Positions 7,519 through 59,815 of a stretch of 64,000 nt of DNA are shown here, in pieces (position 1 is the stretch's first letter; every line of letters starts with the position of its first letter). The notes beneath the pieces were generated by a model. That model ran no database searches. It had not been told where the DNA came from and saw nothing but the letters and a program-made list of their open reading frames with translations. The DNA lies in assembly GCA_951406725.2 (NCBI GenBank), contig OX597815.1, positions 168,702,001-168,766,000 of the forward strand. The letters are read 5' to 3'. Source of the DNA: Octopus vulgaris. Its lineage: Eukaryota. The position numbers and the translations under genes are program-made.

Positions 7519-7591
<73 letters not shown>

Positions 7592-7607
7592 TAATTATTA
7601 TTATTAT

Positions 7608-8326
7608 TACTATGAAGTTTTTCGGGGGATAAAACTGGCATCCAGTGATTTCTTCCAGAGATTTGCAAGAGGAGCTGCAAGTTGCTGTCTGCATTCCTTC
7701 AGGATTCTCATACAGTCCCAAAGTTTGCTGCTTCTTTGATTCCAAGGTTGTTATTTTTCTCGATTGGGAGTGATGCTGATTGTGGTATTTTAGAATATTT
7801 AATTTTTCGGGTTATTCTTTTTATTCTCCTGGTGAGCGCTTTTCTCTGTTTTAGAATATTGCATCTACTGTTATTTATGAGTTGTGAGGGTGTGTGTTTT
7901 GAGCATATGTGGGTGACCGTGTCCTCAAATAGTTGCCATGCATTTGTGTTTGCTGTGGTATTGGAGGAAGCAAGGGTGAAGGACCAGTCCACTTGCAATA
8001 AGTCTTGAGTAATCGCAGTCCAGTTTGACTTGTGTAAATATATATATATATTATTATTATTATTATTATTATTACGGAGATGTACTCGCATAGCAAGTGA
8101 TTTGATCTGAGATCGTGTGCTGAAACGAAAACAATTGTAGCGTGGAAGGTGTTTGTAAGCCATTTAAGAAACACACAAAAGCCATTCGATTTACTTCAAC
8201 ATTTAAGTTTAATTTGTCTGACAAATTAAACTTAAATGTTGAAGTGAATCAACATTTTGTGTGTTTCTTTGGCTTAAAACACCTTCCACGCTGCAATTAT
8301 TATTATTATTTTATTATTATTATTAC

Positions 8327-8362
<36 letters not shown>

Positions 8363-8964
8363 GATTATTATTATAATTCCTTTTTTCTCGATTGCTCTGA
8401 AACCCCTCTCTCTCTCTATTCCCCCCTTGCTTTTCTTTCTCTCTTTCCCCTTTTTTCCCCCCAAACCAAAAACAATATTACCCTCTTCTAAGCAAAGCAA
8501 TAGTTACGGGTATAAATCTGAACTTGTAACCTGGGTGGAGTAGCCGTAATTTTCTCAATGGTTCAACGTAAGTCTTTTCTTTCTCGTTGACCTTTAGCAT
8601 TATGTTGACATCCGCTAGACAAGTGATTTCTACTGAAGTACATAACTTCTCTCTTCGATCCCAGATCACTATGTCTGGTCTATTATGTTTGCATTTTATT
8701 GAGGATTTTACTGGGAAATTCCAGTAGTACTCGTTCGTATTATGTACATATACGTTTGCGCGCGCGCGTGTGTGTATGTGTGTGTGAGTGTGTGTGTGTG
8801 TGTGTATGTGTGTGTGTGTTTGTTTGTTTGTGTATTTTCTTTATATGCTTGAACCATTTCAACAAAGAAAAGTCTGGTTTCTAACAAAGAAACAAGGCTG
8901 TATTATTGGAACTCAGCAACAATAAGCAGTCATATTATGAAATGTACAAAAAACGTTGTTGTTG

Positions 8965-9028
<64 letters not shown>

Positions 9029-10032
9029 GAAGTTTTTCGGGGGATAAAACTGGCATCCAGTGATTTCTTCCAGAGATTTGCAAGAGGAGCAGCAAGTTGC
9101 TGTCTGCATTCCTTCAGGATTCTCATACAGTCCTACAGTTGCTGCTTCTTTGATTCCAAGGTTGTTATTTTTCTCGATTGGGAGTGATGCTGATTGTGGT
9201 ATTTTAGAATATTGATTTTTCGGGTTATTCTTTTTATTCTCCTGGTGAGCGCTTTTCTCTGTTTTAGAATATTGCATCTACTGTTATTTATGAGTCGTGA
9301 GGGTGTGTGTTTTGAGCATATGTGGGTGACCGTGTCCTCAAATAGTTGCCATGCATTTGTGTTTGCTGTGGTTTTGGAGGAAGCAAGGGTGAAGGACCAG
9401 TCCACTTGCAATAAGTCTTGAGTAATCGCAGTCCAGTTTGACTTGTGTAAATATATATATATTATTATTATTACGGAGATGCACTCGCATAGCAAGTGAT
9501 TTGATCTGAGATCGTGTGCTGAAACGAAAACAATTGCAGCGTGGAAGGTGTTTGTAAGCCATTTAAGAAACACACAAAAGCCGTTCGATTCACTTCAACA
9601 TTTAAGTTTAATTTGTCATTATTATTATCATTATTATTATTATTATTATTCCTTTTTTCTCGATTGCCCTGAAACCTCTCTCTCTCTCTCTCTCTCTATT
9701 TCCCCCTTGCTTTTCTTTCTCTCTTTCCTCTTTTTTACCCCAAAACCAAAAGCAATATTACCCTCTTCTAAGCAAAGCAATAGTTACGGGTATAAATCTG
9801 AACTTGTAACCTGGGTGGAGTAGCCGTAACTTTCTCAATGGTTCAACGTAAGTCTTTTCTTTCTCGTTGACCTTTAGCATTATGTTGACATCCGCTAGAC
9901 AAGTGATTTCTACTGAAGTACATAACTTCTCTCTTCAATCCCAAATCACTATGTCTGGTCTATTATGTTTGCATTTTATTGAGGATTTTACTGGGAAACT
10001 ACAGTAGTACTCGTTCGTATTATATACATATA

Positions 10033-10102
<70 letters not shown>

Positions 10103-10240
10103 TTTGTTTGTTTGTTTGTGTATTTTCTTTATATACTTGAACCATTTCAACAAAGAAAAGTCTGGTTTCTAACAAAGAAACAAGGCTGTATTATTGGAAC
10201 TCAGCAACAATAAGCAGTCATATTATAAAATGTACAAAAA
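7608..10240. repeat. Direct tandem duplication (units about 7608-8952 and 9024-10240) of a composite of LINE fragments and a PLE-type element
   Basis: Both units start ACTATGAAGTTTTTCGGGGG and end ATGTACAAAAAA. They contain CR1-like linker (HKSNWTAITQDLLQVDW) and R4 endonuclease (NRPDIVIWD…VEIT) fragments. Confidence 0.92.
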
Positions 10241-10603
10241 ATCGTCTGGCGTAATTTTACCGCTCCACTTACAGCTTAAACTGACTGAATACGAGAAAGA
10301 TCGCCGTTGTTATCGTTGTTGGTTTCCGAATTCCAGTGACGTAGCTTCTGTTTCTTTGTTAAAAACAGCTCCCTCCTTCGGGAAAGGATTCTTATAAAAA
10401 TGTGGAACATGCATTCATGCACCCGTACAAACAGATAGACAGGCAGACAGACAGACGACAGACAGACATCGTTATGCGGTGAACAGGCAACTGATTAAAT
10501 GGAATAGTAAATATATTTTCTATTCTTTGAGAACATAAATATAGAAACAAAAACACTCAAGTAGAACGATATATATGTGTGTGTATGTATATATATATAC
10601 ACA

Positions 10604-15027: not shown

Positions 15028-15450
15028 GGATCTTTTCGGTTTGAACGGCAGTTTTTTCTAGCGGTGTCATATGAAATTGTCACCCATAATTATGACCCTA
15101 GTATCGATCTATTGCATTTCAATCTGTTTTAGGGTTAGGGTTAGGGTTAGGGTGGGGGAAGGGTATCTTTTTTTCTTCACAAATGTAAATAAACCCAATC
15201 TGTTTCTTAAACGAGGGACATATTCATACGGCACAGAATGTTTTTTTTACCTCAATGGACGTCAGTGATTGGTTGAAATTGCAGAAATTGAAGAAGAAAA
15301 ACAACAAATATCTTACAAACAATAAAATTTTCTCAATAAAACCAAGAGAAAAAGATGTTTTATAAAAACATTCTACCAGTATACGAAGTTTAAAATTTTT
15401 TAGTTACCTAGAAATTATGTTAAAAACTGCCGTTCAAACCGAAAAGATCC
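15028..15450. mobile_element. Telomere-repeat MITE copy 2, 8-bp TSD AAAGAAGG
   Basis: TIRs GGATC…GATCC; TSD at 15020-15027 and 15451-15458; internal (TTAGGG)n. Confidence 0.92.
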
Positions 15451-16825: not shown

Positions 16826-16975
16826 GCGTGCGTGTTTTCTATCTACACTATAATGGAAAAAGCTGTTTATTAATTAGGTATGTAACAGTTGCTAAAAGTA
16901 CAAAAAGGAAGCAATTATTAAAGCTTTGTTGACCATCTGGAAATATTTTCATAAATTCATGTTTTAAGAAATTTC

Positions 16976-17364
16976 GGATCTTTTCGGTTTGAACGGCAGA
17001 TTTTAACATAATTTAAACATACTGGTAGACTGTGCTTATAAAACATCTTTTTCTCTTGGCTTTATTGAGAAAATTCTATGGTTTGTAAGATATTTGTTGT
17101 TTGTTTTTCTTCAATTTCTGCAATTTCAACCAATCAAATACATCCATTGAGGTAAAAAAACATTCTGTGCGTATGAATATGTCCCTCGTTTAAGAAACAG
17201 ATTGGGTTTATTTACATTTGTGAAGATAAAAAGCTACCCTTCCCCCCCACCCCCTAACCCTAAAACAGATTGAAATGCAATAGATCGATACTAGGGTCAT
17301 AATTATGGGTGACAATTTCATATGACACCGCTAGAGAAAACTGCCGTTCAAACCGAAAAGATCC
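16976..17364. mobile_element. Telomere-repeat MITE copy 3, 8-bp TSD GAAATTTC
   Basis: TSD at 16968-16975 and 17365-17372. Confidence 0.9.
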
Positions 17365-17771
17365 GAAATTTCCTATAATTTCGATTTCTCAAGTTTATTG
17401 AATTTTTTTTTTAACTCCAACTTCTCGCAAATTTAAATATTCACTGCGTTCAATTCATCACAAACTTAAATATTCATTGCATTCACTGCGGAGCATTCTA
17501 TTTTCATTTGCAAAGTTCCTCACTTTGTCTTTTAAGTTTTAATTTGCTATTAATGCATACGTAAAATAAAAACATTGTTTATTGAATGAAAGTTTTTTTT
17601 TTAAATACCCAAATAATTTTTGAACGTAGGATAGCTGTGAGAAGAGCCTAGAAAGTTAGGTAATTACTATTAGAAGACGAGGAGAAAAAACAAAAAACAA
17701 AACAAAAAGTTACTGACATGTAATCGAAACTTGCACCTTAATCACATTTTCCAAACACAACTTCAACAGTG

Positions 17772-17814
<43 letters not shown>

Positions 17815-17869
17815 AATATACACTCGCGCACACACACAGATATACATACGCACAAATGAAAGGCAATGA

Positions 17870-17954
<85 letters not shown>

Positions 17955-17974
17955 GCATCACGTTTGTGAAGTTT

Positions 17975-18021
17975 TGTCAGTGAACAGGTCGCGGTTTCAA
18001 AGCGACGAAAATATTTTGACA
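17975..18021 (+). ncRNA. Variant minimal hammerhead ribozyme (G3-C8 core GUGAACA)
   Basis: Stem I TGTCA/TGACA, core GTGAACA, stem II GTCGC/GCGAC, GAAA, palindromic stem III AATATT, UUU site. Confidence 0.6.
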
Positions 18022-18361
18022 CAAATGAAGTTTTACTGATGAAGGGAAACCAACGGCAATTATGTGTGCTTGAATGGTTTACAGACATCTTGCACGCTGC
18101 AATTGTTTTTGTTTCAGCACGCAATCTCAGATCAAGTCACTTACTATGCAAGTATATCTCCGTAATTCTCTGCGGCAGAAATAATATTTATATGTATGTC
18201 AAATAAAAAGCAAATTTGATCTAGCAAGAAATTGATATTGTTTCTTTTATGGAAATTATGGAGAAAGGTATATCGCAGAATATTGCTGATTTTTCAAGGG
18301 CTCAACTTAAAATTTGCTTCAGCTGAAATGATATCGAGAATACGACTAAGCAGAAGACAAA

Positions 18362-21103: not shown

Positions 21104-21149
21104 AACACAACGTTTCGGCTAATATACCCTCCAGCCTTCATCAGATGTC
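21104..21149 (-). ncRNA. Minimal type-I hammerhead ribozyme (PLE pLTR type)
   Basis: Minus strand: GACAT CTGATGA A GGCT..AGCC GAAACGTT GTGTT; canonical core, GUU site. Confidence 0.75.
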
Positions 21150-59306: not shown

Positions 59307-59815
59307 TATATTATATTAAATTAGAGATAAAACCACTATTAGGCAAATCATACAATGAAAAACTTAAGCCAATACATAAGATTATTTAATTTATATTATT
59401 TAAATATATAACAAAATTATTAAAAAAATATAATTAATATAACACTACGATCGTTTCATGGCTGTTAATTTCTTTAAATTTTCGAGTTACAGTCATTCAT
59501 CAGGTGGTTTAAATATTTAACTTGGCGAGGTTAAACCACCTGATGAATGACTGTAACTCGAAAATTTAAAGAAATTAACAGCCATGAAACGATCGTAGTG
59601 TTATATTAATTATATTTTTTTAATAATTTTGTTATATATTTAAATAATATAAATTAAATAATCTTATGTATTGGCTTAAGTTTTTCATTGTATGATTTGC
59701 CTAATAGTGGTTTTATCTCTAATTTAATATAATATAATATTTTACTATAAAATTGGATTCAATCCTAAATCTGATTTTTCCCTGTAAGTTTGGATTTATT
59801 CCCTAATATTTATTA
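59307..59815 (+). mobile_element. Palindromic PLE-derived element (206-bp arms, 18-bp spacer) with a hammerhead on each strand (59443-59506 -, 59537-59600 +)
   Basis: CAC CTGATGA ATGACTGT…ACAGCCAT GAAAC GATC GTA GTG; flanked by (TA)n. Confidence 0.85.

Follow-up and report, generated by a model that had tools for sequence, protein, structure and literature searches.

A natural G3-C8 variant of the minimal hammerhead ribozyme in a family of Penelope-like elements

The 64-kb stretch of DNA analysed here (the window) carries a minimal type I hammerhead motif in which the tertiary pair between positions 3 and 8, central to the active hammerhead fold, reads G3-C8. Both the ribozyme class and the kind of element are known; the variant occurs naturally. 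The interpretation that we consider fairly probable from sequence comparison is that this motif belongs to the 5' leader of a Penelope-like element (PLE), within its pseudo-LTR (pLTR), that it likely cleaves itself weakly, as a dimer or with the protein of the element, and that the 5' ends of most inserted copies, likely derived from uncut, capped RNA, are not determined by it.

The motif, at 17975-18021 on the plus strand, was read from the sequence and found in descriptor scans of the window (Table 1). In stem I, TGTCA (17975-79) pairs with TGACA (18017-21), and in stem II GTCGC (17988-92) pairs with GCGAC (18002-06); the core letters GTGAACA lie at 17980-86, GAAA at 18007-10, and the cleavage triplet UUU, which conforms to NUH, at 18014-16, so that the predicted cut falls at 18016/18017. 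Stems, core and site are thus as given in a preliminary description of the sequence, from which one base was missing, the unpaired G17987 between A9 and G10.1; an unpaired base at this place is a hallmark of Penelope minimal hammerheads (PMC4209133). The motif has the three-way junction of a hammerhead with stems I and II paired, a Watson-Crick 3-8 pair, G10.1-C11.1, intact U4 G5 A6, A9 and GAAA, and A15.1-U16.1, along with the inserted base and the palindromic stem III of the PLE minimal hammerheads. The literal core CUGANGA is absent, the RNA reading GUGAACA, and an Rfam search of the window gave no hammerhead match at this place, even at E<=10. The predicted cofold of two copies has an energy of -28.2 versus 2 x -12.6 kcal/mol, with the AATATT palindromes paired. 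A pseudoknot between loop I and loop II, seen by eye in the Helitron-borne subfamily, was dropped, not being kept in the young subfamily.

Table 1. Coordinates of the features of the window discussed in the text
Feature	Position	Strand	Basis or detail
1.4-kb tandem duplication with both sister copies	7539..10241	.	7539-8218 vs 8956-9617, 95%; 8346-8953 vs 9618-10241, 93%
Young-family pLTR copy, long arm, without hammerhead	8072..8218	-	sequence comparison
Inverted short arm of the 8072-8218 insertion	8219..8298	+	terminates at the short 3' end of the family
Duplicate of the 8072-8218 insertion, without inverted arm	9470..9618	-	
Non-autonomous Helitron-like host carrying the pLTR	16841..18167	+	5' end (TC after A) near 16842; interrupted ~16976-17364; 3' part absent
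Pseudo-LTR piece	17972..18166	+	terminates at the long 3' end of the family; shares 83% identity with the young-family pLTR over 191 nt
Minimal type I hammerhead, G3-C8, predicted cut 18016/18017 (UUU)	17975..18021	+	sequence, descriptor scans, covariation versus sister families
Core GTGAACA (G3 = 17980, C8 = 17985) and unpaired G	17980..17987	+	sequence; descriptor scans; inserted base typical of PLE minimal hammerheads
Stem II (5 bp, G10.1-C11.1) and loop II	17988..18006	+	sequence; loop differs among subfamilies
GAAA, self-complementary stem III AATATT 18010-15 (predicted dimer helix) and U17	18007..18016	+	sequence; two-copy cofold pairs both palindromes
ORF start, first 31 codons, decayed copy, 57 nt after the predicted cut	18074..18166	+	continuation into ORF in L135, L145

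That the motif might be a chance look-alike in an AT-rich repeat is hardly credible. The lack of an Rfam match would agree with such an origin, as would the lowest-energy fold of 17960-18030, in which stem II is present and stem I is absent; however, both stems fold, in prediction, in the 53-nt motif taken alone and in the 5' leader of the young family. A descriptor accepting any Watson-Crick 3-8 pair has two matches in the window, this motif and, on the minus strand, one with a canonical core starting at 21144. Applied to 40 random sequences of 64 kb with matched dinucleotide composition, it gave one relaxed match and no G3-C8 match with both stems of at least 5 bp. A chance origin we count as already refuted by the homologues with canonical cores, since sister families share both position and scaffold, and the pairs covary, as described below.

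One such sister, family B, possesses C3-G8 on the same scaffold, located upstream of a similar N-terminus, and its RT is 60% identical to that of the family represented in the window (family A), the two being sisters (SH-aLRT 100) on a quick RT tree built without bootstrap and without reference elements. Family B (L265-L274) is a PLE of very recent age, its ORFs (~1,310 aa) being intact and 99% identical; its young copies carry the non-canonical C9, meaning that the core tolerates drift in this clade, and its older copies carry A9 and CUGANGA, the canonical-core matches, from these older copies, numbering 125 versus 0 in the control. Another example is family C (L363, L337, L362, and L364), likewise C3-G8 on the same scaffold, in which L363 combines stems I and II identical to those of family A with a canonical core; no ORF link was made to this group. 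Among more distant relatives from metagenomes, one (L306, 46% RT identity) encodes a U3-A8 core with C9 at 2490-2537 and one encodes C3-G8; hammerheads were found in only 2 of the 26 metagenome loci, most of the contigs being too short.

Covariation was assessed over 20 motifs, hand-picked as representatives from the pattern matches. The 3-8 pair holds in all 20 (16 C-G, 3 G-C, and 1 U-A), though the independent changes at this pair number only about two, the three G-C rows and most of the C-G rows being related. Double changes occur at 10 of the 13 pairs, a figure reached by none of 500 shuffles, with slid controls far lower, and 88% of all cells are paired (96% in stem II, 80% in stem I), in rows that are related and pattern-chosen, which favours pairing and overstates independence. 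Both G10.1-C11.1 and A15.1-U16.1 are present in 20 of 20. Because the 3-8 pair holds throughout and double changes are seen at so many of the pairs, the 3-8 swap is read from the alignment as a natural compensatory change, with C3-G8 as the most parsimonious ancestral state.

As to how common the swapped core is, in the genome of 2.8 Gb one shared pattern matched 5,816 times with G3 and 32 times with C3, the latter splitting into 31 C3-C8 and a single C3-G8; the G3 pattern left position 8 open, and C8 is found in 99 of the 100 matches listed. A reversed-pattern control gave 0 matches versus the 5,816. Copies of the young family possess G3-C8 in 76 of the 84 sampled (6 were not parsed) and the Helitron-borne copies in 25 of 30, and older subfamilies of family A keep the core unchanged while differing in loop II. 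G3-C8 is, then, the fixed state of family A. The preliminary description had claimed a natural, swapped hammerhead and had proposed that the consensus core be checked for GTGAACA; the claim is upheld by the state of the family and by the compensatory covariation with the sister families. One family A copy (L361, G000:C18:35457851) has an exact C3-G8, its inverted partner being G3-C8, probably a chance double mutation. A pattern seeking additional G3-C8 families in which N7 is not A matched 3 times versus once in the control, and none of the matches could be established as a family.

The identity of the parent element emerges from the young family, whose members are 99% identical and include the window's sister copies. 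Walking upstream from the pLTR leads through ~1 kb of UTR into a GIY-YIG domain, and the order EN, 3' UTR, motif-bearing pLTR is seen in 13 of 13 long loci, these having been chosen for long open frames. One locus, L135, has the arrangement pLTR-ORF-pLTR, and in L145 the reading frame of the pLTR continues into the ORF. In a frame of 1025 aa, Pfam matches GIY-YIG (E 1.8e-5) but not RT, the motifs of which were recognized by eye; the frame also contains a CxxC linker. As in PLEs, a single ORF combines RT, a linker Zn-finger and GIY-YIG, and the pLTR carries the ORF start and occurs in partial tandem and inverted copies with a 3' tail. The sequence evidence thus identifies the parent as an autonomous PLE with a C-terminal EN (C-terminal EN+), of the Neptune/Nematis type. 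A non-LTR retrozyme, in which units of 150-400 bp bearing a canonical hammerhead stand in tandem, does not fit, the copies being solo or inverted pLTRs of a coding element. Neither does Naiad, in which the GIY-YIG is N-terminal, whereas the EN here is C-terminal. An RT fragment upstream of L050, which had suggested Naiad, was rejected as the parent because 19 other copies of it are found without the pLTR; it belongs to another PLE, the insertion target. In L050 and L061 a family A piece lies inside the RT of another PLE that by eye resembles the Hydra clade. Four EN copies from among the most diverged (L230-L233) have no recognizable pLTR. By eye the EN looks like the Nematis rows in the supplement of PMC8557442, and the C-terminal EN+ PLEs with a Zn-finger linker described in the available parts of that paper (Neptune, Nematis; Craig 2021) share with ours the order RT, CxxC linker, GIY-YIG, the inverted and partial-tandem insertions and the targeting of (TA)n.

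Exact matches to an anchor number 4,506, and the ends of the copies were examined in the first 100, taken without regard to their 5' ends and representing 77 insertions, 23 of which are inverted pairs. The 3' ends cluster at +84-91 (33) and at +143-150 (51); an inverted pair usually has one end in each cluster. The 14 nt beyond the 3' end are (TA)n in 60 of the 100, (ATT)n in 1 and other sequence in 39, so the earlier assignment of the family to (ATT)n rather than (TA)n was wrong, (ATT)n being the local context only. Two 3' ends, (TA)n and inverted pairs make up the PLE tail signature, as in the available parts of PMC11167929 and PMC8557442.

The 5' ends tell against a model in which the ribozyme defines the retrotransposed RNA, as the preliminary description had proposed: the 3' cleavage product would be retrotransposed and copies would begin at TGACA. 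Half of the 100 ends fall at -62..-56 relative to the predicted cut, 14 lie further upstream, 32 at -55..-7 and only 4 at -6..+2, the anchor beginning at +3, so that ends at the cut are detectable and later ends are not, and ends inside inverted junctions being uncertain by a few bases. Per nucleotide this is 0.44 ends near the cut, 0.65 just upstream of it and 7.1 at -62..-56, with no enrichment near the cut over the adjacent stretch (binomial p=0.83). The 54 solo insertions behave likewise, 24 starting at -62..-56 and only 1 near the cut, and in a second, approximate set 3 of 29, the query excluded, start within -7..0. Full-length L135, moreover, retains the ribozyme and the upstream UTR in its 5' pLTR. 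For most inserted copies, therefore, the 5' end is not fixed by cutting. What speaks for the cleavage model is that the window's sister insertion does begin at the cut and that a few inverted copies (L038, L056, and L164) begin 3-5 nt upstream of it. We regard this model as very improbable, and as refuted for the main route, although a minor peak of a few percent could exist.

The window's sister copies themselves conform in part to the earlier account. The 147 bp downstream of the cut are 80% homologous to 8071-8217 and 82% homologous to 9470-9616, confirming the reported homology of about 150 bp, and TGACA at 8219 does open the fold-back inversion. However, both copies lie within one tandem duplication of 1.4 kb (93-95% identity) and so represent one insertion, not two independent ones; their ending at TGACA, taken for a family pattern, is atypical. 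Junction positions are spread continuously, and the sister insertion falls in the short tail of this distribution.

The prominent start at -59 has features of its own. The base preceding AGATG there is G in 12 of 19 non-template flanks, the template C/T in 7 and A in none, only 6 of the 12 extra Gs being independent and not explicable by an inverted arm; a further comparison adds three G and one A. As an untemplated 5' G has been read as a reverse-transcribed cap in LINE-1 and SVA (PMC4859970), a capped transcription start at -59 is likely on this analogy. A good splice acceptor also coincides with this position, with a branch-point, a pyrimidine tract and an AG directly at the putative start. 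No shared upstream exon or spliced joint was found in either the loci or the contigs, the joint, from an upstream GTAAG to the CTAAC...CAG acceptor, having been sought in all loci with two matches, both to unrelated sequence. In L082 (1875-1907) and in other UTR-bearing copies well-conserved acceptor-like sequence suggests a 5' UTR intron, as in the Penelope of D. virilis.

The copy in the window has reached its place in another vehicle. Together with its 29 closest fetched relatives (~85-90% identical), it lies mostly in an element of ~2 kb, the 5' motif of which is present in 16 of the 30 loci, 14 starting with TC and 13 of those after A, and the 3' GC-rich hairpin in 6, followed by CTAG before T in 4 and by CTAA before T in 2. 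A 5' TC after A, and a 3' hairpin with CTRR before T, are what we take to be Helitron ends. The likeness to non-autonomous Helitrons extends to a head-to-tail junction of two units in L010; here the element is a carrier of the pLTR. In 28 of the 30 Helitron-borne loci, the window copy not among them, stem I and the core have their complement in an inverted arm just upstream, and the whole motif is kept in only 3 of the 30, the window copy included. Conservation across the 30 loci is no higher in the motif region than in the flank downstream of it (majority share 0.92 versus 0.95), and the Helitron-borne motif copies are therefore likely neutral passengers, the window copy probably among them.

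For the parent element, the evidence suggests the following course of events. The transcript would be capped and would start ~59 nt upstream of the predicted cut; RT would prime on nicked (TA)n, starting internally at ~+89 or ~+147, within the ORF start, and reverse transcription would run back through the uncut ribozyme to the cap. The products would be solo or inverted pLTRs of 150-210 bp in (TA)n, a second inverted arm being often made. Cleavage, predicted for only part of the RNA and likely as a dimer via the AATATT palindrome, may be put to partial use, such as the processing of tandem read-through or cap removal.

How active such a ribozyme may be can be judged from related systems. In the available parts of PMC11167929, cleavage by PAc, a PLE hammerhead, needs protein and is dispensable for insertion in vitro, with no RNA ends at the cut, and an engineered C3G/G8C partly rescues cleavage, while PLE minimal hammerheads cleave poorly in vitro (PMC4209133); this poor cleavage and the only partial rescue of G3-C8 would weaken our explanation. 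A hammerhead that has lost all or nearly all catalysis, and that persists for its structure (as an RNP binding site, a promoter or a translation element) or is simply inherited, would agree with the templates being mostly uncut, with the dispensability of cleavage for PAc insertion and with both young families having left the canonical core (G3-C8 in A, C9 in young B, versus CUGANGA in older B), and amplification may even profit from a weakened core, since the RNA would stay capped and uncut. However, in a dead ribozyme one would not expect a second transversion to restore Watson-Crick pairing between 3 and 8, nor does death sit well with a core held unchanged across subfamilies of different loop II or with the keeping of the palindromic stem III and the UH site, and we judge it unlikely. 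A weakly cleaving ribozyme, bypassed in most copies, remains our preferred interpretation. The stronger statement, that this is the first natural, catalytically active G3-C8 hammerhead, fixed across the thousands of copies that a retroelement with recent activity has left, and missed by CUGANGA descriptors as well as by Rfam, we advance only tentatively, judging it somewhat more likely to fail than to hold.

Among known systems, the PLE minimal hammerheads (Cervera and de la Pena 2014, PMC4209133) are the closest, with the location in the pLTR, a stem I of 4-5 bp, a base inserted between 9 and 10.1, G10.1-C11.1, a tiny palindromic stem III and mostly solo copies. They differ in that only C3-G8 and U3-A8 are found in the available parts of that paper and in that their stem II is 7-8 bp versus 5 bp here. 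Natural U3-A8 variants are also on record (Perreault 2011, PMC3088659, and the Cercyon PLEs of Schistosoma, PMC4209133), presenting the same covariation of the tertiary 3-8 pair in nature; U3-A8, however, requires two transitions and keeps a purine at 8, whereas G3-C8 requires two transversions and places a pyrimidine there. PAc (Poseidon, Anolis; Frangieh 2024, PMC11167929) likewise has a hammerhead near the ORF start, two internal RT starts giving a "tail", an uncut template and a partly active C3G/G8C form; as far as described in the available parts, its core is canonical and the swap is a laboratory mutant, and in our element the ORF begins 57 nt past the cut and the 3' ends lie ~58 nt apart. 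In the literature searched (including PMC3088659, PMC6765202, PMC3884650, PMC13725137, and bioRxiv 2026.07.22.740005, in the parts available, some key hammerhead surveys and supplements lying outside the search) G3-C8 appears as an engineered variant only (PMC11167929, PMC3884650). Priority for a natural G3-C8 is thus not established, as surveys or supplements outside the search could list one.

The fixed natural G3-C8 of family A, with C3-G8 sisters on the same stems, provides evolutionary support for the 3-8 pair, and the family reveals a kind of core that current hammerhead searches overlook. Where the copies end bears on the role of the hammerhead in PLEs, pointing to mostly uncut and probably capped RNA, matching PAc in vitro (PMC11167929). 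If the stronger statement above is correct, one PLE clade has explored C3-G8, U3-A8, G3-C8, and C9 cores, offering a natural panel for asking whether PLEs weaken their ribozyme so that templates retain the cap, and swapped cores may be present in some PLEs recorded as having no hammerhead.

Some minor observations were made elsewhere in the window. The canonical motif on the minus strand (core start 21144) is a second minimal hammerhead, with CUGAUGA, and belongs to another repeat family. A long, near-perfect hairpin at 59467-59576, with CTGATGA in each arm, may be what remains of another inverted pLTR. Telomere-like (TTAGGG)n occurs as short interstitial arrays at 2221-2245 and 15129-15153.
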